A stretch of 64,000 nucleotides of DNA from a bacterium (GTDB taxonomy: Bacteria; Bdellovibrionota_C; UBA2361; SZUA-149; JAEUWB01): positions 3,182 through 67,181 of the forward strand of contig JAEUWB010000035.1 in the NCBI GenBank assembly GCA_016786595.1, read 5' to 3'. The notes beneath the pieces were generated by a model, which saw only the letters and a program-made list of their open reading frames with translations, searched no databases and was not told where the DNA came from. This document shows positions 5,001 to 64,000 of this stretch, piece by piece; position 1 is the first letter of the stretch; the number at the start of each line of letters is the position of its first letter. Both the position numbers and the translations under genes were made by a program.

Positions 5001-6736
5001 AAATACTTGCCGACCTACTTGAGCAAATCTTACCTGAAATCTCATCTCTCGAGGCAGAATTAGCTTTTATTGAGTTGACTGAGGATTTTGAAAAAGTCGC
5101 AAGTGCGGTTGCCTACAACTACCAGCAGTCAAAGTTGCAGCGCGGAGCGGTGGATTTTTTCGATCTACTACTTGGTGCCGAGGAAATACTCAGCAACTAC
5201 CGAGGTGGAGGCGGCAACCAATCGAGTCATGCAGGGTTTAAGTATCTCGATCAGATTCGTCACCTCATGCTCGATGAATTTCAAGACACCGATGCACGAC
5301 AGTGGCAAATCGTTAAACATCTACTCACCGACGAAGGCCGAACACTTTTTGTTGTTGGCGATGAAAAGCAGTCGATTTATAGATTTCGTGGAGCTGAAGT
5401 CAATCTATTTCGCGAAGCTGTGCAGGCGGTTGAAGCACGTAACGGGCGGGTAATTTCACTAACCGAGAATTATCGTTCCGAGCCGCAAATTCTTGATTTT
5501 GTAAATCATGTTTTTGCTACCGAGATGGCAGATCTTAACTTTGAGCCGCTAACTGCAAAATTGCCGAGCAGTGGTAACTCAAGCGTGGAAGTATTTTTTG
5601 TCTCAGGAAAGGCAGATTCCGATAAAGACGCAGCTGAAGCCCAGCTCATTGCCCGTGAAATAAAAAGCCGGGAAATACAAAACGGGGGAACAAAAAACTG
5701 GATTGCACCGCAGCAAGAGATTGCAATTCTTGCGCGCACGCGCCTGCAACTAGAAAAGCTTGCTTTGGCATTAGGTGCCGCGGGCATTCCCTATACGGTC
5801 AAAAACAATCAAGCTTTCTTTGAATTGCAGGAAGTAAATGAGGTGGAGTTATTTTTAAAATTCATTGCAGCGCGGATTGATGGTAAACTTGATGCGATTT
5901 CTCTGGTAGGATTGTTGCGTTCTTCTTTGCTGGGTTATAGCGACCAGCAAATTTATAAATTGTCACTCCAGCACGATTCGTGGGAAAAGTGCGCACTGAG
6001 CTTGCCGCAAATTGCAACTTGGTGCCAGTTGGCACAAATCATTCCGGCAATTGACCTACTGGAAAGCATTTTCTTAAGTCCACACTTTGGTGGTGGGCTA
6101 CAAGCGCTAGGCTACGCTGAACGTATCGCGAATGTGCAGTTACTGATTGCGACCATGCGTGAGTTAGATCCGCTGCTACAGTCGTATGAGAAGCTTGCGC
6201 GCTGGATTGCATATGAGAGATCTAGTGGCGGACATGCGCTAGCAAATGACTCACTAGCGAAAAATAAATCAGTTGAGAATAGGGATCGCAATCAAGCACC
6301 TCTACCCGTTGTGCTTTCTACTATTCATGCGGCCAAGGGACTAGAATTTGATACAGTGATTTTACCATTTCTTTCCAGCAAATTGCGTGAACGCTCGGAT
6401 GCAATTCTTGGAAATTTAGGAAGTAATGAAATTCTTTGCTTGCCCCCGCGCAAGAATCAAAGCGTAGTCTATCAAACATTGAAAAAGTCAGAAAAAATTA
6501 GCGATCATCAGGAAGAGCTTCGCATTTATTATGTGGCTTGTACGCGAGCCAAAAAAAGACTACTATTGTCAGTGCGGGATGATGTGCTAAAGCAGCTGGA
6601 GAACGAAAGCAGTAAATATACGTTTGGAGCTACCTTGTTAAGTAAAGGACAGCTTGATGATGAAGAATCCCCTCATTGCTTCATCTACAATCAATCGCAA
6701 ATACCAGTAAAGGTATTAGATCTGAGTACGTTATGA
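2069..6736 (+). CDS. Fused AddB-like PD-(D/E)XK nuclease (N-terminal, Fe-S type) and UvrD/AddA-type superfamily 1 helicase (C-terminal), single 1555 aa polypeptide
   Basis: N-terminal half has RecB/Cas4-type nuclease motifs: SVSDLEILSDCPQRYFFRTV, GIVDRIDQ...VWDYKTG, and a Cys triad CSYCEFSRIC (CxxCxxxxxC). C-terminal half has UvrD motifs: Walker A AGAGSGKTQVL, motif III VGDEKQSIYRFRGA, TIHAAKGLEFDTVIL, YYVACTRAKKRLLL. There is no stop between the two domains. Confidence 0.8.
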   Translation: MNCSDIAWKILLSNQAHAVRSGIIRENPRKLTLIQAECLLQWVIQQADLSNRLVSGTLYRYISALRHFALDDQAFAEVIDAHGLSLPHKKYREQALLLRDQFDEVQRRLNYFAEERILELAFELLSQEQSSARLIYPKNVELKLETGKRRSELETKFINLLSKQSEVSQTELVHDSKLENTLIHTPLAQKLLSCLDAWPTAAKDKLSSAQFLSWYSAQRVKLADYRQALAKFDPKISSQLLSERVLTQRAITRSIVEANLAYRLLIDPDAPGVELKPQDSILGFQEWSKILRRVLTQSSYATLRTNEFYQNVVSVSLSEKAPGETEDLAARALRAIQSRSSNQLTAYDAKFEEEYQTATALSTYSVSDLEILSDCPQRYFFRTVLKLENLDQAPEDRIPAESGTLVHESLKQFYALKIPVTRENFQTACNHLKQIALEQFEKSKERQPRAALKVLPTIDWDSSAFYLAEKEYILRGLDQALDAKVKLRGPLRRALELQLNYFSSYPIAVEAQSYANKSDPFFYLERVQVRGIVDRIDQEQNRFHVWDYKTGSVPSRADVKKNRSLQPAIYSAIVEKRFGQVARVGFIPLGGRNNELEEPTEVTDLIDQAKTQDLIHRLDQRVRQGDFSQVLETTACSYCEFSRICFRDQRLLEKKLLAQQAQAKNTTQSTQLVVKIKQEPSTEVSSSSFSLSPLQLLAADPLKSVAVRAGAGSGKTQVLVTRYLRQILIGASVKSILVITFTEKAAEELKRRIYHALERMQSSRAFLGNEISEEALKSVELARVDFSQARISTIHGFARALILRSGLERYQHTRIIAPLEREELLSEIFRSVLVNSKSDQLLKLYRHDIARQRLADLIKQAISERFHGKVKAQYQREALEQDIRLLLQELAEVNFEKLISQLKFWNEVQRRWFSDAQASLETPQQEIYAGILERTEKLEQQLTSPAELSQHRENIAELSNYLNLYRRRALKKPKNYLKILADLLEQILPEISSLEAELAFIELTEDFEKVASAVAYNYQQSKLQRGAVDFFDLLLGAEEILSNYRGGGGNQSSHAGFKYLDQIRHLMLDEFQDTDARQWQIVKHLLTDEGRTLFVVGDEKQSIYRFRGAEVNLFREAVQAVEARNGRVISLTENYRSEPQILDFVNHVFATEMADLNFEPLTAKLPSSGNSSVEVFFVSGKADSDKDAAEAQLIAREIKSREIQNGGTKNWIAPQQEIAILARTRLQLEKLALALGAAGIPYTVKNNQAFFELQEVNEVELFLKFIAARIDGKLDAISLVGLLRSSLLGYSDQQIYKLSLQHDSWEKCALSLPQIATWCQLAQIIPAIDLLESIFLSPHFGGGLQALGYAERIANVQLLIATMRELDPLLQSYEKLARWIAYERSSGGHALANDSLAKNKSVENRDRNQAPLPVVLSTIHAAKGLEFDTVILPFLSSKLRERSDAILGNLGSNEILCLPPRKNQSVVYQTLKKSEKISDHQEELRIYYVACTRAKKRLLLSVRDDVLKQLENESSKYTFGATLLSKGQLDDEESPHCFIYNQSQIPVKVLDLSTL

Positions 6737-13630: not shown

Positions 13631-13757
13631 GTCATCTCGACCGAAGTAGTTCGTCTAAAATTTGTTTTAGACGAATTACGAGTGGAGAGATCTCCTAGAA
13701 TGATCCATTCTAGGATTTGGAGATTTCTCGACTCCACTTCGTGTCGCTCGAAATGAC
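13631..13757. repeat. Repeat family A: forward copy with a hairpin insertion (13631-13695) and a compact reverse copy (13715-13757), separated by the palindrome TAGAATGATCCATTCTAGG
   Basis: GTCATCTCGACCG...GAGTGGAGAGATCTCC on the forward strand, and on the reverse strand GTCATTTCGAGCGACACGAAGTGGAGTCGAGAAATCTCCAAAT. The whole 13417-13870 spacer is repeat-rich, including two copies of CATTTTTATGATGTGATG at 13474 and 13577. Confidence 0.6.
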
Positions 13758-16346: not shown

Positions 16347-16461
16347 TACACGACTTGAGCTCTACTCTGCCTTTTTGTTCTTTTCCAGCTAGAGCAGCTT
16401 TCCCAAAACATTCAGTGTCGCCTGTTTGGAGATCCTTCGGCTGTGCCGAGCAAAAATAAAT

Positions 16462-16563
16462 TTGGCTCGTGCTCGCTCAGGATGACAATCTTTTTAGCGT
16501 TATAGATAATAAATACCGTCATCTCGAGCGAGCACGAAGTGCGAGTCGAGAGATCTCCAAAAA
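16462..16563. repeat. Repeat family A inverted pair (reverse copy about 16462-16488, forward copy 16518-16560)
   Basis: GGCTCGTGCTCGCTCAGGATGAC (rc GTCATCCTGAGCGAGCACGAG), then GTCATCTCGAGCGAGCACGAAGTGCGAGTCGAGAGATCTCCAAAAA. The two copies can form a long hairpin. Confidence 0.65.
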
Positions 16564-28105: not shown

Positions 28106-28172
28106 TCGTCATTTCGAGTGTAGCCTGAACGAACGGAGAGAGTGAAAGGCGAAGTCGAGAAATCTCCAAAAA
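28106..28172. repeat. Repeat family A, forward copy
   Basis: CGTCATTTCGAGTGTAGCC...GAAGTCGAGAAATCTCCAAAAAG. Forms an inverted pair with 27960-28026. Confidence 0.65.
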
Positions 28173-33577: not shown

Positions 33578-36343
33578 ATGGCACAGGATGTAATACAATC
33601 AGCTGGGACATTAATCGCCGCCGCTTTAGAGACGGCAGGATATGTCTCGCAGTCGGAGGTCTTGCATGACTTCCAAGCGCTATTCGATGATTGGGCAGCG
33701 TTACTCTATATGGTTGCTGCTCTTGGCGCGATTGTTTCAGTTGCTATCTACGGAAGCTATCGAGCTGCGCGTTACTTCGTTTTCGGTCCCGCCCTTTTCC
33801 AATTATTTGTTTATTCCGTAACTCCCGCTGAAAATGTGCAATGGGCAATGGGGTCAACCCCAGTTGCTCAAGAAGCAGTGCAGGGGGCATTATCTGGAGA
33901 TCTTGCGACTTATAACGTTACGAGTGACACCAAGGTTTCTTGGGTATTTGATCAATACACAAGGTTTGTCAGTAGTGTAGTCAATAAAATTACCTCGACA
34001 ATTGTTGGAGCAAGCGAGCAGACAAATGCCGAAGGCAAGAATGAGCTTTTATTTCTTACACGCGGTGTAGTTTTGGATCAAATGTTCGCGAGCGACTTAG
34101 TCGATGGTAACTTAGTTGCAGTAGTTCGTAGCTCATTGAATCGAGAGTGCGGAGAGCTTTCAGCCGCATATCTTGGAGTTGCTGATCCGAAGCTGCAATA
34201 TGATTACTTCGAGCATCTTACAAAGAAAGCGAGTGAAATTAGAACTGAAATTGCAGCTGATGCTCCTCCGGAATCAAAGGAAGTTGCGATTGCTCAAGCG
34301 GTTGAGCTTGAAAAGGCCGTGGAGCAAGGAAAGGCAACGCGGGAGCAATACGAGGAGATTATCTGTCGCGCTGAAGAGTATAATGTAAGTCTTAAGGGTG
34401 ACCCGACTTTAAGGGAGTATTTAGTTAAAGATTTAGGCACGACAGATCTTGCGGGGTTTAAGGATCGATATGGACTGCAGCTGAATCCTTTAACTTACAA
34501 AGAAGTTGAAGCCCCTGATTTTACAATGACCTGTGGAGAATTATGGTCGTATATAGCAGCTGGAGTAAAGAAAAACGCAAAATATAGGATCGAAGAAGTG
34601 CTTGCCGAGTACACTGGCCGACCTGGCCAACCGAAGCAAAGAGTTCTGTGCAATGAAATTCGACAAGTCTTTGGAATGTCTCCGCTGCCTTCTGAGCAAA
34701 CGCCACGGGGTCAGCGAACACGTTTACGCTGTGGAAAAGAAGTTCTTGTGCAGGGTGACGTGACCGATCCCGGCGGAAATTCTGTTATCGAAGAATGTAA
34801 TTTAGAAAACGTTTTAGGTGCGATGTTGATTAAGCGCGCAATCGGACAACGTGCACCGTCGCGGTGGCTTCAAGATTTCGGATCAAGAGTGCAATTAGAT
34901 GCTAAGCTTTCAGCAGCGCAAGTTAAGTCTGAACTTGAATCTGCACAGCAAGCAGGAACTCAAATGCCAGAAGTGCTTGAGGTCGAATTCAAAAAAATTG
35001 CTTCTGTAGATGCTTTTAATAACGCTTTCGGTGAGCAGCAGACATATACCTCCTATGGATTAAGACAAGCGATTTTCTCTGCAGCTTTAACCTTTCCATA
35101 TTTTCAGGGAGTAATTTTATATCTACTCTGTATTGTTTTCCCTTTTATGGCAGTGGTTCTTGTTATGCCCGGCAAGGCAGAGTCGATTTTCACTTGGTTC
35201 TTGCTCTGGTTCTGGGTCAAATCTTGGGATATTGGTTTTGCGGTTGCGATGGTTCTGGAGAAAGTGCTTTGGAACTTAATGCCACACTATGATGTTCTCG
35301 AAAAAACATCTCTCACTGCAATTCCTCCGGAAGACATTTTAACACACGCATTATCGGGGGATCCGATATATCATATCAATACCTATTATGCGTTGATGGC
35401 GATGTCGATCATGTCGACACCAGTCTTAATGGGCTTTGGCATTTTAAAAGGTCGTGCCGCGATTCTTTCAAGTTTTACTCATGCAGTAAGTCAAACTGCT
35501 GATGAGTCAAAAGAGTTAGGAGAAGGTCGCTATGCTGTAAAGGTCATGAACATGAACCATGCGGCAATGACAGCATTTAAAAACGCCGCGGGCTTAAGTG
35601 CGCGCAGCCGGGACCTTGCTTATTCGGATCTTGCCCCATGGGGGGAAAGCGGTAGAGGAAAAACTAATGAAAGTAGCGATGGCGGTGCTGTCACAGATCA
35701 TGCACGCCAGAGTGGAATGATTCGTGGCGTTAGCTCTGGTGCTGGAGAGGTGATGAGTAGTATTCCAGGCCTTGCAGGCAAGGCTGGTAATTTTTCAAAA
35801 GGTTCTAAGGCTTCAAAGTTAGATAAGAAAAATGCCAAGCTAGATTCAATTGACTCAGGGCTGGGAATTGCCCAAACGGGCATTGATAAATATCTCAGTA
35901 ACTATAAAAGACTCTATGGCGCTGGCATGAGTCGTGAGTTTCAAGAACAGCATTGGAAAGTGCGACTTTCACATTCAGTTTTTACAATGATTGCGCAATA
36001 TAACTCGATTGATGGCGGCGGTGGCTTTGAGCTTGAGCTTTATGAGGTCAAAGCGCTTTGGTCTAGTCTCTCAAGCGCGTACAAAGAAGATACAGAAACT
36101 TTTGTTGGAGCTGCAGAAGATTTGGGTGGCGGTGCTGTAAAGGGTTTGAGTGGCGGTTTCGATAAGTTAATTGGGGGCAATCAAAAAGCCGGAAATTTTG
36201 GCCCTGTTACGGGTGGGGCGATCAAGGGTTTTGTGCGTAGTGATCTTGCAACGTCACTATATCTCTGGTCGCAAAACGACGAGGGCAATGAATTATCACC
36301 AGTGCCAATGCAAATTGATGTCTGGGAAAAGGAGCGTAAATAG
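33578..36343 (+). CDS. Tandem paralog 1 of 5: large polytopic membrane protein, VirB6/TrbL/TraG-N-like layout (hypothesis)
   Basis: N-terminal AGTLIAAALETAGYVSQSEV helix plus TM (LLYMVAALGAIVSVAIYGSY), about 400 aa Cys-containing soluble region, TM cluster with shared signature PYFQGVILYLLCIVFPFMAVVLVMPGK...WFLLWFWVKSWDIGFAVAMVLEKVLW, and a Gly-rich C-terminal domain. Confidence 0.7.
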   Translation: MAQDVIQSAGTLIAAALETAGYVSQSEVLHDFQALFDDWAALLYMVAALGAIVSVAIYGSYRAARYFVFGPALFQLFVYSVTPAENVQWAMGSTPVAQEAVQGALSGDLATYNVTSDTKVSWVFDQYTRFVSSVVNKITSTIVGASEQTNAEGKNELLFLTRGVVLDQMFASDLVDGNLVAVVRSSLNRECGELSAAYLGVADPKLQYDYFEHLTKKASEIRTEIAADAPPESKEVAIAQAVELEKAVEQGKATREQYEEIICRAEEYNVSLKGDPTLREYLVKDLGTTDLAGFKDRYGLQLNPLTYKEVEAPDFTMTCGELWSYIAAGVKKNAKYRIEEVLAEYTGRPGQPKQRVLCNEIRQVFGMSPLPSEQTPRGQRTRLRCGKEVLVQGDVTDPGGNSVIEECNLENVLGAMLIKRAIGQRAPSRWLQDFGSRVQLDAKLSAAQVKSELESAQQAGTQMPEVLEVEFKKIASVDAFNNAFGEQQTYTSYGLRQAIFSAALTFPYFQGVILYLLCIVFPFMAVVLVMPGKAESIFTWFLLWFWVKSWDIGFAVAMVLEKVLWNLMPHYDVLEKTSLTAIPPEDILTHALSGDPIYHINTYYALMAMSIMSTPVLMGFGILKGRAAILSSFTHAVSQTADESKELGEGRYAVKVMNMNHAAMTAFKNAAGLSARSRDLAYSDLAPWGESGRGKTNESSDGGAVTDHARQSGMIRGVSSGAGEVMSSIPGLAGKAGNFSKGSKASKLDKKNAKLDSIDSGLGIAQTGIDKYLSNYKRLYGAGMSREFQEQHWKVRLSHSVFTMIAQYNSIDGGGGFELELYEVKALWSSLSSAYKEDTETFVGAAEDLGGGAVKGLSGGFDKLIGGNQKAGNFGPVTGGAIKGFVRSDLATSLYLWSQNDEGNELSPVPMQIDVWEKERK

Positions 36344-52066: not shown

Positions 52067-53053
52067 ATGAAGTCAGTAACATTTTCATTTCGCACGGAAA
52101 CAGCGCTTTTTTCTTTGGCCTTTGGCGGGCTGCCACTGCGTGAGCAGGCGTTTAAGGGGGCAATGCGCTACTGGTATAGGGCCTTCTGTGCTTCTGCTTA
52201 TAATCTTAAATCTCTTGCGCATAAAGAGTCGCAAATTTTTGGCTCTAGTGGGAGACAAGGCCAGGCCACGAGGGGAGTGCGTCTCCAACTAATCCGACCA
52301 AACGTCCTGCCCCAAGAAATCTCGCCACAGCCACACAAGGAACGGGTTAAACCTTTGCGCGCCTTGCCAGCGCGGCATGAATTTCAACTTGTGTTATCAC
52401 AACCACACTCGATGCGTGACGAGGATTTTCTAAAAGCCTGTGCTGCACTTTGGCTTGCTGCTACAATCGGTGGATTTGGTCGGCGTTCGCGACGTGGAGC
52501 GGGAGGAGTGCGGGTTATTTCAATCTCAGGTTCGTATCAACTGAACTTGCCAGTAATCCATCAGCAGTGGTCGAGTGACGAACTTAAGAATGCATTAAGT
52601 GCCGGTTTAATTGAAGCCAGAAAAATATTATTCGAAGGCGGAAAAAATATTGAAACTCCCAATCAGTTGCGCGGCGATATCCCACAACTGGTTAGCGGTA
52701 AAGATGGTTCGCATATTATTATTTCTGACCTCGGCCCTAGTAGCGAAGCCGAAGCGCGCGCTAAGCTCATGCTTAAGTTACGGCAATTTAAAAACCAAAT
52801 TTTTGGTTTGCCGTTGAAGATCAATCAGGGAGAGAATGGAGCGCAGGCAGAACGAAAAGAGCGCTTCAGTCGAGAAGGTTCCAAGCGTTATGCATCACCA
52901 GTATGGATCAGGCTAATTGAGTTAAAGAGCGGGTGGACAATGATTGTCACACTCTTATTGCCGCTGCCCCGAGTTAAAACGGCCAATCGAGATAAGCTAG
53001 ATGAATTTTTAGCTGCGCTCAAGCAGAACCGTAAAGAGGTTGCAATTCCATGA
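52067..53053 (+). CDS. cmr1: Type III CRISPR RAMP protein, Cmr1-like
   Basis: N-terminal TETALFSLAFGGLPLREQAFKGAMRYWYRAF matches the Cmr1 LFxGG...RxxSxKGALRFWFRA signature. QIFGSS block. Gly-rich loop GGFGRRSRRGAGGVRV. First gene of a four-gene operon with overlapping stops and starts. Confidence 0.6.
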   Translation: MKSVTFSFRTETALFSLAFGGLPLREQAFKGAMRYWYRAFCASAYNLKSLAHKESQIFGSSGRQGQATRGVRLQLIRPNVLPQEISPQPHKERVKPLRALPARHEFQLVLSQPHSMRDEDFLKACAALWLAATIGGFGRRSRRGAGGVRVISISGSYQLNLPVIHQQWSSDELKNALSAGLIEARKILFEGGKNIETPNQLRGDIPQLVSGKDGSHIIISDLGPSSEAEARAKLMLKLRQFKNQIFGLPLKINQGENGAQAERKERFSREGSKRYASPVWIRLIELKSGWTMIVTLLLPLPRVKTANRDKLDEFLAALKQNRKEVAIP

Positions 53054-54280: not shown

Positions 54281-55498
54281 ATGAGCGAAAAAACAGGCAA
54301 GATCATTAGCTATAATGCTGCCAACAAAATGGGAGAAATCGCTTTTGCCGGTTTTGATGTCCCTGCGCGGTTCTATCTTTCTGTTGTTACGAACCCGACA
54401 CCTGAACCAGTTAAGGGTGACCAAGTGAGTTTCGCAGCAGCAGATCCGGTAAAAAATAAAAAAGGAAAATACTCGCCTGTAACTGCAAGTACGGTAACTA
54501 TTACTGAGCGTTCTCCCGTACGGGAAGAGGAGAAAAAATTTGATGCAACTGCTCAAAGTTTTCGCACGACACTGCAGCGTGGAGCTCGTAATGACCGCTC
54601 CAGAAACAACCGCACAAAATCAGCTTCAAAAATTTCGCAGCAAGCTCAAGAATTACGTGTGATCCCTAAGCGACAACTTTCGCTACGCATTGCCCATGAT
54701 GCAACTCCACTGCCGCGTGATATGCGTCGACGTATGGTCAATTGGGGCACTGCTAATCCAGCTTTTTTGCTAGCAAAGGGCATTTCCTGGAAGCATGCTG
54801 AAAATAATGAATTTGAGCGTAATCGCGATCATTTTCGGCATTTTATGCACAAAACATTTCTGCCGGTTTATCAAAATGCAGTGAAGAATCTTATCCCTTT
54901 AGAGGCACTCAAAACTCGGCAGATCCAAATTTATAAATCCCTACGAACTCAGGGCTATTTACTCGATCATCGTGTTTTAAAATTATCTACACCACTAGTG
55001 CTTGGGCAGAATGCTTCTAGTTTATTACGGCAAATCAGTGTCGTTACTGACCATCTTTATGGTTATCCTGTGGTGCATGGGTCAATGATCAAGGGAACTT
55101 TTAAAGAATATCTACAAAACTTACTGGCTGGAGATCCTGGACTTGCAGTAGCTAGAGATTTTGAACAAATTTTTGGGACAACAGAGGCACCAGGCCGGGT
55201 GATCTTCTTTGATTCTTTTCCTACGCGGGCTTTGCCTGATCTTGGATTTGAAACTCTGCAGGATTCATTCCCTGCTTGGTATCATGGCCGGGGTTCTGCA
55301 GCTGATACTCAGTTACCTGAACGAGACTATCTATCTGTGATTAAACCTGGAGCTGAATATACATTTAGTTTTGCGTTGAGGCCTGGCTCAGAAGAGTCGC
55401 TACTTGGCACGGTAGGGAACTTATTGCAGCAAATGCTTGTTGAGTTTGGGCTGGGATCAAGAACCGCCCTAGGATATGGGCGATTCAGGGTTAACTAA
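54281..55498 (+). CDS. cmr6: Cmr6-type RAMP with an N-terminal cold-shock domain (CSD) fusion
   Basis: aa 1-70 KTGKIISYNAANKMGEIAFAGFDVPARFYLSVV...KGDQVSFAA follows the CspA pattern (GxVKWFNxxKGFGFI...VFVHxSxI...GxxVxF). The C-terminal half has Cmr6 blocks PVVHGSMIKGTFKEYL (pyIPGSSlKGvlR), EQIFGTTEAPGRVIFFDSFP (lFGs...G.v.F.DA.P), DSFPAWYHG (tPHy.pYY) and the terminal Gly-rich loop EFGLGSRTALGYGRFRV. Confidence 0.6.
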   Translation: MSEKTGKIISYNAANKMGEIAFAGFDVPARFYLSVVTNPTPEPVKGDQVSFAAADPVKNKKGKYSPVTASTVTITERSPVREEEKKFDATAQSFRTTLQRGARNDRSRNNRTKSASKISQQAQELRVIPKRQLSLRIAHDATPLPRDMRRRMVNWGTANPAFLLAKGISWKHAENNEFERNRDHFRHFMHKTFLPVYQNAVKNLIPLEALKTRQIQIYKSLRTQGYLLDHRVLKLSTPLVLGQNASSLLRQISVVTDHLYGYPVVHGSMIKGTFKEYLQNLLAGDPGLAVARDFEQIFGTTEAPGRVIFFDSFPTRALPDLGFETLQDSFPAWYHGRGSAADTQLPERDYLSVIKPGAEYTFSFALRPGSEESLLGTVGNLLQQMLVEFGLGSRTALGYGRFRVN

Positions 55499-59528: not shown

Positions 59529-61628
59529 TTAATAAGCAAGTAGTTGCCTTAACCCTTCGGTGATCCACTCAGTTTGTGGCAAAATCTGCGCCTCTAGAAC
59601 TGGTGAATGTGGAATGGGCGATGCTTTGCCGCCAATTCGTTTAACCGGAGCGTCAAGATACTCAAAAGCATGCTCTGCTACAAATGCCGCAATTTCTGCG
59701 CCAAAACCCATAAAAAGCACATCTTCATGAGCAACGAGTAAGCGACTAGTTTTCTTCACGCTTTCTAAAATAGTTTGCGTATCAAGCGGAACAATTGTTC
59801 GTAGGTCGATTACTTCAACCTCGGCGCCTGCTTTAGCAAGTTCTTCTGCAGCAAGGAGACTTTTTTGCACTAAGGCGCCCCAGGTCACAATTGTTGCATG
59901 CTTACCAGGTCGTACTACCTTAGCGCGCCCGAGCGGAATTAAGTCATCAGCTCCGCCTTCTTTGCCCTTGGCATAAACTTGGCGATATAGACCTTTGTGC
60001 TCCAAGAATAACACTGGGTCCTTGCCGCGAATTGCCGATTTTAAAAGCCCCTTGGCGTCTGTCGCATTTGAGGGCAGCACTACATAGAGCCCGGGAAAGT
60101 GTGCAAAAGTCGCTTCGATATTTTGCGAGTGATAGACCGCACCATGAATGTATCCGCCAATTGGAACACGTAGCACTGCTGGACAAGTCCATGTGCCGTT
60201 AGATCTGTAGTTCATGATTGCAAGCTCGTTACGAATTTGCATCATTGCAGTCCAGATATAATCTCCAAATTGAATTTCTGCGACAGGCCGCATGCCCACA
60301 GCAGCCATGCCCACAGCAGCTCCAGCAATTGAAGCTTCAGCAAGAGGCGCGTTAAACACGCGCTTAATGCCGTATTTAGCAGTCAGTCCAGCTGTTACCG
60401 TGAACACTCCACCTTTGCCATGCGCGACATCTTGCCCGAAGATCACCATCTCAGGATTCCGTGCGAGCTCTTCGTCAAGTGCATGGTTAATTGCGTCAAC
60501 GATAAATGTTTCTTCGCCAGTTGCTGGTTTTTCAACAATGCCCGCACCGGGATCGAGATCTACATAGACATGATCTAGTGCAGTATGCGGAGCTGGCTCT
60601 GGCTGCGCTTCAGCCCAGTTTGCACCAGCGTCGACTTCTTGAATGACTTCTTCGCGAATTTTCTTTAGTTCTGTCGTGCTAAAACCTGCCGTAGCAGTAA
60701 GATAGGATTCCATGCGTAGTAGCGGGTCACGCTTTTGATCTCCGAGGATGTCCTTTTCGTCGCGGTATTTAGCCTGGTTATCAGAGATCGAATGGCTTTG
60801 TAGGCGCACAACTTTGGCGACTACAACTGTTGGGCCGCCTCCTGAGCGTGCGCGTTCAACTGCTGTGGCAAAGACTTGATGCGAAGCTTCAAAATCTAAG
60901 CCATCAACTTCTACGACCTCCAATCCGTCGTAGCCCGAGGAAATCCCGGCAACACTTTTGCCGGCAGTTTGCTCAGAGATATGGACTGAAATCGCGTATT
61001 CGTTATCTTCGACAAGGAACACGACGGGAAGTTTTTCGCGTGCGGCCCAGTTTAAAGCCTCGTGATAATCGCCTTGGGAAGTTGTGCCTTCGCCAGTAGA
61101 GACATAAACGACTTGGTCGGTGCCACGGTATTTCGCCGCCATGGCAGTTCCGACGGCTTGAAGGAACTGTGTTCCAGTAGGTGAGCTTTGATTGATGATG
61201 TTGAGTTGATTGTGTCCATAGTGCATCGGCATTTGACGACCGCCAGAATTTGGATCGTCTGCGCGATTCATGGCGTTAAGCATTAATTCCTTTGTGGTCA
61301 TGCCTACGCCAACGCAAAAAGCCATGTTGCGGTAGTACGGATAAAAATAATCGTAGCTAGGCTTAAAATTGTATGCAGCTGCGATTTGGACAATTTCATG
61401 TCCAGCGCAGCCAATTTGGAAGTGGCACTTATTTTGCTTGTATAAGACAATCGTCTTTTCATCGGCTAACCTCGCGCGGAGCGCGTCGCGATAGGCGCGA
61501 GCGAGCAGCTCTTTAGTTAGCGTTGAGCTAGTCTTAGGTTTTTTGCTGGAGGCGACAAGAACGCTGGAGCTGGTCTTTCCGCTGCTGCTTTTTTTGTTCT
61601 TAGATGTGGATTGCTCTTCCAAGCGCAT
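59529..61628 (-). CDS. 2-oxo-acid dehydrogenase E1 component, fused alpha and beta subunits (TPP-dependent)
   Basis: 699 aa single ORF. The N-terminal half has the TPP-binding alpha subunit pattern (GEGTTSQGDYHEALNWAA) and the C-terminal half is a transketolase-like beta subunit (VFGQDVAHGKGGVFTVTAGL). Confidence 0.85.
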   Translation of the reverse strand: MRLEEQSTSKNKKSSSGKTSSSVLVASSKKPKTSSTLTKELLARAYRDALRARLADEKTIVLYKQNKCHFQIGCAGHEIVQIAAAYNFKPSYDYFYPYYRNMAFCVGVGMTTKELMLNAMNRADDPNSGGRQMPMHYGHNQLNIINQSSPTGTQFLQAVGTAMAAKYRGTDQVVYVSTGEGTTSQGDYHEALNWAAREKLPVVFLVEDNEYAISVHISEQTAGKSVAGISSGYDGLEVVEVDGLDFEASHQVFATAVERARSGGGPTVVVAKVVRLQSHSISDNQAKYRDEKDILGDQKRDPLLRMESYLTATAGFSTTELKKIREEVIQEVDAGANWAEAQPEPAPHTALDHVYVDLDPGAGIVEKPATGEETFIVDAINHALDEELARNPEMVIFGQDVAHGKGGVFTVTAGLTAKYGIKRVFNAPLAEASIAGAAVGMAAVGMRPVAEIQFGDYIWTAMMQIRNELAIMNYRSNGTWTCPAVLRVPIGGYIHGAVYHSQNIEATFAHFPGLYVVLPSNATDAKGLLKSAIRGKDPVLFLEHKGLYRQVYAKGKEGGADDLIPLGRAKVVRPGKHATIVTWGALVQKSLLAAEELAKAGAEVEVIDLRTIVPLDTQTILESVKKTSRLLVAHEDVLFMGFGAEIAAFVAEHAFEYLDAPVKRIGGKASPIPHSPVLEAQILPQTEWITEGLRQLLAY

Positions 61629-63000
61629 CTGCCATTGCCTCCATCATTGCTTCGGATAGTGTTGGGTGAGCGTGGATAGTATTAGCTACGCTCGTTGCTG
61701 TGCCTTCTAATGAGCGAATCACTGAAGCTTCAGCAATTAATTCTGTAGCCTCAGGATGTAAAATGTGGACTCCTAGTACTTCATCAATGTCGGCATCGAC
61801 AACGACTTTCACGAATCCATCTGTTTCATTAGAAGCTACTGCTTTGCCGCTGGCGCTAAAGGGGAAGCGCCCGATGCGGACATTTTTCCCTGCGTCGCGT
61901 GCGGCTTTTTCGGTCATGCCAATTGAGGCGACTTGTGGTTTGCAATAGGTGCAACCCGGGATACTCGTATAGTCGAGTGGATGAGTGTGGTGGTTGGCGA
62001 TGACTTCTGCGGCGATAATGCCTTCATGACTTGCGACGTGGGCAAGTAGTGGTGGGCCAATCACGTCTCCAATCGCGTATACGCCGGGCACGCCAGTACG
62101 ATAATATTGGTCAACTTTAATAAAAGATTTTTCAGGTCGAATGCCGATTTTTTCAAGGCCAAGATCTTCTACATTGCCTTGAACGCCGACAGCCACGAGG
62201 CAATAGTCGCCCGACCATTGTTCGACTTTATCGCCGCTTTTAAGAAGTGCGTTAACGCTATTACCTTTGCGCGTTAGGCTTTCGACGACAGTTTTAGTTT
62301 TAATTTCGATTTTCTGATTTTTAAAGATTTTTTCTAAGCCTTTTGCGCAGTCTTGGTCCTCGATCGGTAGGATTTGATCTTGAAATTCAACGACTGTTAC
62401 TTCTGCGCCGAAGGTGCTGTAGAAGTAGGCAAATTCGATGCCGATTGCACCGGCACCAACGACAAGTAATTTCTTTGGACATTCGTTGAGGGCCAAGGCG
62501 TGGCGATAAGTAATCACGCGTTCGCCGTCGACGGGAAGGCTGGGCAGTGTTTTTGCGCGGGCTCCTGTAGCGATAATTACATTCTTGTAACTATAGGATG
62601 TTGCTTTGCCGGCTGAGTCTTTAACGACAACAAAGTTGCCAGCTTCAAGGGATGCGGTTCCGGGGATGAGATCGACTTTGTTTTTTTTGAGCAGGAATTT
62701 TACTCCGCCAGTCATTTTATCGACAACGTTACGAGAGCGTTTGATGATTGCCGGGAAGTCAGCTGTAATGCCGGAGGCGTTTAGTCCGTAGCTGCTAGCG
62801 TGTTGCATGGTTTGAAATACTTCTGCGCTTTTGAGCAGCGCCTTTGTAGGAATACAACCCCAGTTTAGGCAGATGCCGCCGGGGGATTCTTTTTCGATGC
62901 AGGCTGTTTTTAGGCCAAGTTGTGCGGCGCGGATTGCGGCGACGTAGCCGCCTGGGCCTGATCCGATGACGATGCAATCATATGAATTTGTTGCTGACAT
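61600..63000 (-). CDS. lpd: Dihydrolipoyl dehydrogenase (E3)
   Basis: FAD motif IVIGSGPGGYVAAIRAAQLG, redox disulfide GGICLNWGCIPTK, NAD motif, and C-terminal HAHPTLSE. Confidence 0.92.
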   Translation of the reverse strand: MSATNSYDCIVIGSGPGGYVAAIRAAQLGLKTACIEKESPGGICLNWGCIPTKALLKSAEVFQTMQHASSYGLNASGITADFPAIIKRSRNVVDKMTGGVKFLLKKNKVDLIPGTASLEAGNFVVVKDSAGKATSYSYKNVIIATGARAKTLPSLPVDGERVITYRHALALNECPKKLLVVGAGAIGIEFAYFYSTFGAEVTVVEFQDQILPIEDQDCAKGLEKIFKNQKIEIKTKTVVESLTRKGNSVNALLKSGDKVEQWSGDYCLVAVGVQGNVEDLGLEKIGIRPEKSFIKVDQYYRTGVPGVYAIGDVIGPPLLAHVASHEGIIAAEVIANHHTHPLDYTSIPGCTYCKPQVASIGMTEKAARDAGKNVRIGRFPFSASGKAVASNETDGFVKVVVDADIDEVLGVHILHPEATELIAEASVIRSLEGTATSVANTIHAHPTLSEAMMEAMADALGRAIHI

Positions 63001-63180
63001 ACTTTTGTCCGTTGATATAGTTTCTTTGTTTATCTAAGTTAAAGAATTTAAAGCAGAGAAACTAGGATATTCTTCGCGAGATAACAAGGGGTGCAAAATA
63101 AGCACTTAACATCGGGTATCTTGTTGAAAACTTTACTCATTCGGCAATCCGTTTTAGATTGCTGAGAAGTGGCAAATGTG

Positions 63181-63254
63181 CGCCCTTAGCTCAGCTGGAT
63201 AGAGCAACTGGCTTCGAACCAGTAGGTCGGGAGTTCGAATCTCTCAGGGCGCGA
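63181..63254 (+). tRNA. tRNA-Arg (anticodon UCG)
   Basis: Cloverleaf folded by hand: acceptor GCGCCCT/AGGGCGC, D-arm GCTC-AGCTGGATA-GAGC, anticodon arm ACTGG-CTTCGAA-CCAGT (UCG), T-arm GGGAG-TTCGAAT-CTCTC, discriminator G. No encoded CCA. Confidence 0.85.
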
Positions 63255-63535
63255 TGGCTAGAGAAGTGCAGAGGATTTGCAACTAGAGGATTCGAACCGG
63301 GCGGCCGTTAGGCTGCCGAATCAGTAGGGTGAATCTCTCAGGGCGCGATGGCTAGAGAAGTGCAGAGGATTTGCAACTAGAGGATTCGAACCGGGCAGCC
63401 GTTAGGCTGCCGAATCAGTAGGGTGAATCTCTCAGGGTGCGGTGGCTAGAGAAGTGCAGAGGATTTGCAACTAGAGGATTCGAACCGGGCGGCCGTTAGG
63501 CTGCCGAATCAGTAGGGTGAATCTCTCAGGGCGCG
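63255..63535 (+). repeat. Three tandem 93-94 bp direct repeats, each ending with the last 17 nt of the adjacent tRNA-Arg (GAATCTCTCAGGGCGCG)
   Basis: Units 63255-63347, 63348-63441, 63442-63535, differing only by a few substitutions and one 1-bp indel. Begins exactly at the tRNA 3-prime end. Confidence 0.85.
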
Positions 63536-63554
63536 CTTAAAATCGCTTACTGTT

Positions 63555-63614
63555 GTCATCTTGAGCGGAGCGAGTTTCGCTTTGCGAAGCTCGCGGAGTC
63601 GAAAGATCTCCAAA
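63555..63614. repeat. Repeat family A copy
   Basis: GTCATCTTGAGCGGAGCGAGTTTCGCTTTGCGAAGCTCGCGGAGTCGAAAGATCTCCAAAT. Confidence 0.6.
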
Positions 63615-63643
63615 TTAGTTTTGCCAGATACGTAGGAATGCAT

Positions 63644-64000
63644 ATGAAAATCATAGTTGCCCAGACCCTTGCTAACCGTGTGAAGTCTGGTGAGTTAATT
63701 GGCCTTGGTTCGGGGACGACTGTTGAGCTTGCGATTGAGTGCATTGGTAAGCGGATTGCAGAAGAGGGTCTTAAAGTTACCGGAGTGCCTACGTCAATTC
63801 GAGTTGCCCAGCAGGCGGCTAAATCTGGTTTTACGTTGCTACCTTTACAAGCGCAGGCCGACATTAACTGGTCTTTTGATGGGGCTGATGAGGTTGATCC
63901 ACATTTGAATTTAATCAAGGGTCGTGGCGGGGCGATGACTTGTGAAAAGATTTTAGCTCGAGTTAGTCGTCGTCTAGTGATTATTGTGAGTGAGGATAAA
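63644..64000 (+). CDS. rpiA: Ribose-5-phosphate isomerase A, 5-prime partial (continues beyond the window)
   Basis: IGLGSGTTV, GVPTS, DGADEVD and IKGRGGAMTCEKI motifs of RpiA. Confidence 0.8.
   Translation, partial: MKIIVAQTLANRVKSGELIGLGSGTTVELAIECIGKRIAEEGLKVTGVPTSIRVAQQAAKSGFTLLPLQAQADINWSFDGADEVDPHLNLIKGRGGAMTCEKILARVSRRLVIIVSEDK

Follow-up and report, generated by a model that had tools for sequence, protein, structure and literature searches.

Gene content of the locus

The window, i.e. the whole 64-kb stretch of DNA analysed here, carries a single tRNA gene, which ARAGORN places at 63179-63254 and names tRNA-Arg(tcg). The same gene, tRNA-Arg(UCG), is recognized by Rfam family RF00005 at 63180-63253 (69.9 bits, E 5.9e-15) and forms a full cloverleaf. 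Its last base is the discriminator G63253, and CCA is not encoded. Behind this gene stand three tandem units, each ending in the last 17 nt of the tRNA; this arrangement had been proposed in an earlier sequence-only reading and is confirmed by ARAGORN, Rfam and TRF. The coordinates of these and the neighbouring features are collected in Table 1.

The upstream neighbour, lpdA, is divergent and forms the last gene of a minus-strand 2-oxoacid dehydrogenase operon. On the other side, the sequence-only reading had expected a "family A" repeat followed by rpiA, and both are present in that order. The family A element is dispersed in the window, with partial copies near 13715-13735, 16425-16561, 28153-28170 and 33895-33910, and its ends read GTCATCYTGAGCG ... 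GAGTCGARAGATCTCCAAA. The rpiA gene is the conserved downstream neighbour of tRNA-Arg(UCG) in relatives as well. No terminator-like site was found between the tRNA and rpiA, and the array is probably co-transcribed within this spacer.

Two other features of the window were recorded. Between 33578 and 46378 on the plus strand, five consecutive large paralogous ORFs (921, 829, 711, 809 and 932 aa) share a common conserved block and give weak TraG_N-like matches (PF07916), mostly under the gathering score; the tandem family looks like membrane or secretion-related proteins. Moreover, two plus-strand ORFs at 52067-53053 and 54281-55498, which is 8-11 kb upstream of the tRNA, contain RAMP superfamily domains (PF03787, E 1e-10 and 1e-11) and may belong to a type III CRISPR-Cas-like module.

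Table 1. Features at the tRNA-Arg(UCG)-rpiA locus, with positions counted from the first letter of the window.
Feature	Position	Strand	Evidence
lpdA (dihydrolipoyl dehydrogenase), divergent upstream neighbour	61600..63000	-	homologue search
Intact tRNA-Arg(UCG), discriminator G, CCA not encoded	63180..63253	+	ARAGORN, Rfam RF00005, sequence
17-nt repeat GAATCTCTCAGGGCGCG, copy 1 (part of the functional tRNA)	63237..63253	+	TRF, sequence search
Unit 1, 94 nt: 77-nt body and 17-nt tRNA 3' end (63331-63347)	63254..63347	+	TRF, unit comparison, alignment
G+C-rich central hairpin GGCGGCC-GTTA-GGCTGCC of unit 1	63300..63317	+	inverted-repeat search, folding, alignment
Unit 2, 94 nt; private transitions G>A 63397 and C>T 63438	63348..63441	+	unit comparison
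Unit 3, 94 nt; private transition A>G 63442; terminal 17-mer 63519-63535	63442..63535	+	unit comparison
REP-like palindromic element (family A), outside the repeat unit, between array and rpiA	~63553..63615	+	repeat searches
rpiA (ribose-5-phosphate isomerase A), 5' end of the gene, truncated at the window edge	63644..64000	+	PF06026 homologues

Structure of the 94-bp tandem array

Over 63237-63535, TRF reports a period of 94 with 3.2 copies (3.18), 97% matches and a score of 577. Counted from the first 17-mer, the array is 299 bp long and consists of four 17-mers and three bodies. The 17-mer GAATCTCTCAGGGCGCG takes in T-loop positions 57-60, the 3' strands of both T-stem and acceptor stem, and the discriminator, and the exact identity of the fragment to the tRNA begins at T-loop position 57. 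Its copies start at 63237, 63331, 63425 (1 mismatch) and 63519 and occur nowhere else in the window, where 0.23 would be expected by chance at up to 3 mismatches. The three downstream copies lie on the plus strand in the orientation of the gene and all reach the discriminator, and the 17-mer is intact in three of the four copies. Each body is flanked by identical 17-nt repeats and contains no genes. Both junction types are present, namely 17-mer to ATGG and 17-mer to CTTA, and the terminal 17-mer of unit 3 adjoins the downstream flank CTTAAAATCG.

The units are very similar to one another. The sequence-only reading had put the variation at 3-4 differences per unit; instead, only three positions vary in the 282 nt, all of them by transitions (unit positions 1, 50 and 91, at 63442, 63397 and 63438, respectively), which gives 0-2 variants per unit. 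All units measure 94 nt and are about 99% identical across this full length, including the 77-nt body. The change at 63438 falls within the 17-mer of unit 2, and the change at 63397 replaces a G.T pair by A-T in the central hairpin.

The unit body has a G+C content of 54.5%, compared with 35% in the adjacent intergenic DNA. The central hairpin listed for unit 1 recurs at 63394-63411 and 63488-63505 and is an insertion relative to the tRNA, and each unit as a whole forms a long hairpin with imperfect pairing (-34.5 kcal/mol, z -2.4). No coding potential was found in the array: its period, 94, cannot be divided by 3, and the only ORF, which crosses the tRNA, is a spurious one of 50 aa. The sequence-only reading had also suggested that ARAGORN be run on both strands of the units, and no tRNA or tmRNA was called at default settings or with -ps80, while -ps60 and the mitochondrial mode gave nonsense calls only. 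Rfam, searched at E up to 10, returned the real tRNA and no family in the units.

Two other kinds of repeat system were considered and rejected. A CRISPR array, already dismissed in the sequence-only reading, does not fit, since the entire 94-nt period recurs with about 99% identity and there are hence no unique spacers. An integron attC site does not fit either: the only GTTRRRY match (GTTAGGC) lies in the hairpin loop and not at the stem base, and no complementary RYYYAAC, cassette ORF or intI accompanies it.

A 13-nt segment upstream of the tRNA (63134-63146, TACTCATTCGGCA) is 92% complementary to TGCCGAATCAGTA, which occurs in every unit, at 63314-63326, 63408-63420 and 63502-63514. This complementarity may be due to chance; a rough estimate by hand, not a computed value, is a few percent.

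The unit body as a tRNA-gene fragment

By local alignment with cheap gap extension, the 77-nt body aligns colinearly and in the sense direction on tRNA-Arg(UCG) from the D-loop onward. The alignment consists of three blocks: TGGCTAGA on the D-loop TGGATAGA; GCAACT..GGATTCGAACC on the anticodon arm GCAACTGGCTTCGAACC; and GGGCGGCCGTT on GGTCGGGAGTT or, alternatively, CGAATCAGTAGG on CGAACCAGTAGG. The aligned blocks are about 86% identical to the tRNA. Insertions of about 16, 3 and 21-24 nt break up the tRNA-like sequence, and the G+C hairpin is one of them. The tRNA-like part appears to begin no more than 1 nt past the tRNA end, where TGGCTAGAG matches the D-loop TGGATAGAG at 8 of 9 positions.

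Against 1000 dinucleotide shuffles, the sense alignment has a p value of 0.001-0.003, and the reverse complement stays at chance level (p 0.27). We also scored the body against 38 distinct tRNAs, with the last 17 nt removed from each of them. The top five were all tRNA-Arg(UCG) with scores of 31-37.5, and the mean over the 38 was 24.3 (sd 5.0). Since the sense alignment is significant and the top scores all belong to tRNA-Arg(UCG), the body should be regarded as a tRNA-gene fragment and not as native spacer. Judging by these alignments, it is a copy of tRNA-Arg(UCG) in the sense direction that has lost the 5' part and has decayed with insertions.

The segment GGATTCGAACC had earlier been taken as the reverse complement of a T-arm, hinting at an antisense origin. 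The segment itself is indeed present in the units, but the antisense origin was rejected on the p values given above. The better reading is the sense anticodon loop, and 10 of its 11 positions agree with the sense anticodon arm GGCTTCGAACC. Both readings looked possible because TTCGAA is its own reverse complement.

Occurrence of the unit and the empty site in relatives

The unit appears to be confined to this locus. The other 63.7 kb of the window hold no further copies beyond chance-level 9-14-mers, and nhmmer found no match in 570 kb of related loci. The GTDB representative genomes and JGI metagenomes, searched with a gapped pattern, gave no match, and sensitive blastn against GenBank phages and PLSDB plasmids gave chance matches only. 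In IMG/VR, four patterns were searched without a match, including both attP-type junctions. As far as these data reach, a dispersed REP/MITE family thus appears to be excluded.

A recombinase was looked for as well. None of the 10 integrase-sized ORFs of the window (290-411 aa) has a recombinase domain. Between the tRNA and the fragment there are 77 non-coding nt with no integrase and no cargo, which is below the minimum of 2 kb that Islander sets for an island, and no matching attP was found in the viral contigs, phages or plasmids searched.

MBL7662209.1, a protein of an NCBI MAG, has the same sequence as the window LpdA, which was used to find the relatives. The closest other LpdA is 78% identical, the best GTDB species representative has an LpdA of 72% identity, and the nearest homologues carry the labels Bdellovibrionota or Oligoflexia. 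The sequence-only reading had recommended that the arrangement be looked up in relatives. The locus with the 78% LpdA (L001) keeps the order lpdA, tRNA-Arg(UCG), rpiA, with about 45 nt from the tRNA to rpiA and no repeat. In the metagenome contigs L058 and L065, the tRNA-Arg(UCG) is identical over the 3' 43 nt and then continues with A73 and CCA; the spacer before rpiA is about 75 nt, unrelated and also without repeat, and the tRNA-rpiA order is kept. The empty site, with tRNA-Arg(UCG) 45-75 nt upstream of rpiA, is thus seen in three distant relatives whose LpdA is 78% identical or less. On this comparison, the tRNA-rpiA junction is conserved, and the array is evidently an insertion into it that is specific to this lineage.

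Two side observations concern the same relatives. The tRNA-Arg(UCG) of the window has G73 and no encoded CCA, whereas A73 and an encoded CCA are present in the orthologues of L001 and L058/L065; the difference could reflect a replacement of the 3' end. In addition, the lpdA-tRNA-Arg spacer of L001 (4940-6000) has about 1 kb inserted, including an 86-aa ORF (5503-5763) flanked by several palindromic repeats of the CCGCAGAGG/CCTCTGCGG type, a family distinct from the 94-bp unit.

tRNA-Arg ends as integration targets

The known footprint of integration at tRNA genes is a 3'-terminal fragment in direct orientation, located downstream of an intact gene and ending at the discriminator, and the crossover sublocations are the anticodon loop, the T-loop and the T/acceptor junction (PMC4383910). 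The 21-mer GTTCGAATCTCTCAGGGCGCG is present in 18 IMG/VR loci, several of which lack a full tRNA by ARAGORN. In two of them (L020 and L022) the fragment is of tRNA-Arg(UCG) and begins at the anticodon stem; in two others (L010 and L015) a tRNA-Arg fragment begins in the D-arm. We read these truncated viral fragments as putative attP-type sites or att ends. They are 45-55 nt long, compared with 17 nt here, and the hosts are unrelated. Their presence in viral contigs without a full tRNA means that genes with this end are real integration targets; mobile elements do use tRNA-Arg genes that end in this way as targets, and they carry 5'-truncated copies of them.

One of the viral genomes (IMGVR_UViG_3300041409_000267, 67.7 kb; L014/L017) has a truncated tRNA-Arg fragment and the same ~70 nt, including this fragment, at both of its ends, which suggests a circular or terminally redundant genome.

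Origin of the array

We tentatively favour an origin in one integration-type tRNA fragment whose island was lost and which decayed and was then recently amplified in place; we would give this account a little less than an even chance. First, a tyrosine-integrase element would have entered the 3' part of tRNA-Arg(UCG), which would yield a regenerated intact gene together with a tRNA-gene fragment that lacks the 5' part and stops at the discriminator. Second, the element would have been deleted, leaving at most a few tens of bases, and the fragment would have decayed by insertions, the small G+C hairpin among them. Third, the segment of 77-nt body plus 17-nt end, lying between identical 17-nt direct repeats, would have been amplified recently from one copy to three. 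The result of this last step is seen directly in the array, and its mechanism was likely unequal homologous recombination or replication slippage. The product is most likely an inert relic, without sign of present function, and not a working system.

The composition of the array bears on the order of these steps. With four 17-mers and three bodies, the precursor must already have had the form 17-mer/body/17-mer, since plain duplication of a segment gives equal numbers. The three transitions among 282 nt indicate that the amplification is recent, and the near-identity across all 94 nt indicates that the units are copies of one unit and not three independent scars. The sequence-only reading had regarded the duplicated tRNA ends as the footprint of integration, repeated in cycles of integration and excision. 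The integration part is supported by the geometry of the fragment, by the viral fragments and by the relatives without the insertion, but the serial origin is not, because the near-identity extends through the body. Moreover, integration and excision leave either the element or nothing.

Several findings were counted in favour of an integration event. The identity starts in the T-loop, which corresponds to the T-loop/junction sublocation (PMC4383910). The G+C content of the body, the empty site in relatives, the viral tRNA-Arg fragments and the sense identity to the tRNA were counted on the same side. Against it stands first that no integrase, cargo gene or attP was found in the searches. The terminal identity of 17/17, given blocks of about 86%, is no strong outlier (~0.08), and the boundary is not statistically sharp. 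The distal 17-mer, which is expected to be the host original, has G73 without CCA just like the proximal one, while the relatives have A73 and CCA; G73 without CCA at both ends is unlike the simple picture of a host original and an element copy, unless the ancestor had no CCA or the copies were homogenised. Finally, without a close relative (the nearest LpdA is at 78%), no intermediate states are available.

The strongest rival is a local origin without any mobile element, which we consider possible but less likely. Here, tRNA positions ~17-73 would have been tandemly duplicated by slippage or unequal exchange, the pseudogene would have gained insertions, and the 94-bp unit would have been amplified. 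The D-loop-like TGGCTAGAG 1 nt after the discriminator, colinear with the tRNA, fits such a duplication of positions 17-73 better than it fits the deletion of an island, unless the 8/9 match arose by chance. The unit is specifically tRNA-Arg(UCG)-like and private to this genome among the collections searched, and the absence of integrase, cargo and attP from the searches is also in agreement with a local event. However, the 3' breakpoint exactly at the discriminator would be a coincidence, whereas an att fragment should end there. Integrase-generated fragments are known to be commoner in bacteria than partial duplications of tRNA genes (see also Islander, PMC4383910), and the body has decayed heavily by indels while the 17-mer has been kept perfectly. 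Both models lead to an identical present structure.

It is improbable that the copy number is an artefact of assembly, i.e. that the true locus has one or two units and strain variants were threaded into a path of three. The source is a short-read NCBI MAG contig of 86.8 kb, the 299-bp array exceeds typical reads, and the three variant positions could be variants of the population instead of differences between copies. Collapsed or looped de Bruijn paths normally yield identical copies, however, and the units carry distinct variants. Since both junction types exist, at least 17-mer/body/17-mer is real.

Still less probable is a functional array, for which three forms can be imagined: four tandem attB-like sites acting as a landing pad; a 94-bp att-only non-autonomous element, expanded and contracted by an integrase in trans; or a hairpin RNA, processed from the tRNA-Arg/rpiA transcript, with a mimic of the tRNA 3' end. 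The stable imperfect hairpin of each unit (-34.5 kcal/mol, z -2.4), the single substitution in the central stem, which turns G.U into A-U, the 17-mer kept intact in three of four copies and the lack of a terminator-like site from the tRNA to rpiA would agree with some role. But the z-score of the fold is modest, and one compatible transition is not evidence. The unit has no homologue in any collection searched, so that neither conservation nor covariation can be shown, and neither an Rfam family nor a tRNA-like fold was found in it, even at relaxed thresholds. The relatives manage without the array, and no recombinase was present among the ten window ORFs tested.

A dispersed palindromic cluster (REP/BIME-like or MITE) beside the tRNA by chance is hardly credible: the unit is an imperfect palindrome, tandem and intergenic, with a genuine dispersed REP-like element just downstream, but no other copy exists in the window, in 570 kb of related loci or in public collections, and its ends are the tRNA's own 3' end and not terminal inverted repeats with target duplications.

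Implications of the array

If the single-integration account is true, the array would be a small natural example of the fate of a tRNA-gene fragment once its island has been lost, and it would show that the short direct repeats made by integration can themselves drive tandem amplification. It would also mean that a structure that looks like a regular repeat system, or like att sites in series, can nevertheless record a single event. This concerns pipelines that find islands or annotate repeats: arrays of this kind do not pass the integrase and length filters, and a miscall as CRISPR-like or as a novel RNA is possible. Moreover, tRNA-Arg(UCG) would be a probable integration site in a poorly sampled lineage of Bdellovibrionota. 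The array opens no new biological question.

Comparison with known systems

We compared the array with five known kinds of element. It is like an Islander tDNA fragment in that an intact tRNA gene is followed by a 3' fragment of the same gene, in direct orientation and extending from T-loop to discriminator (PMC4383910). It is unlike one in having just 77 nt between the repeats, no integrase or cargo, and a unit in tandem three times, and the Islander filters, which ask for a length of at least 2 kb and an integrase, would reject it.

The 20-bp ssrA 3'-end repeats of the Dehalococcoides ssrA islands, which are direct repeats in tandem downstream of tmRNA, have the same geometry, and some of the segments bounded by them are without an integration module (PMC3146451). 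At those loci, however, every interval is an island of its own, kilobases in size and carrying genes, whereas the intervals of the array are all the same 77 nt, which argues for amplification and not for serial insertion. The integrase of Dehalococcoides is a serine recombinase, and none was seen at the array.

CIMEs are decayed ICEs or IMEs that keep attL and attR. Like the array with its putative att repeats, they are bounded by att-like repeats, lack the genes for integration and transfer, and can lie in tandem, by accretion, at a tRNA 3' end (PMC5704250). Unlike it, they are kilobase-scale and their mobilisation by a related ICE has been demonstrated, while the array has a unit of 94 bp and no partner element was found for it; the mobility of a 94-bp circle is physically doubtful.

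REP/BIME arrays and MITEs resemble the array as imperfect palindromes set head to tail in intergenic DNA, but the unit has a single locus in everything searched and is derived from the adjacent tRNA. With tRNA pseudogenes from tandem duplication, the array shares a body that is apparently decayed sense tRNA-Arg(UCG). It differs from them in that the unit is truncated 5' at the D-loop, broken by insertions and unseen by ARAGORN and Rfam, yet exact at its 3' end. Taken together with these systems, the array is best placed as an unusual small variant, most likely inert, of the well-known tRNA-gene fragment at an integration site, amplified in tandem.
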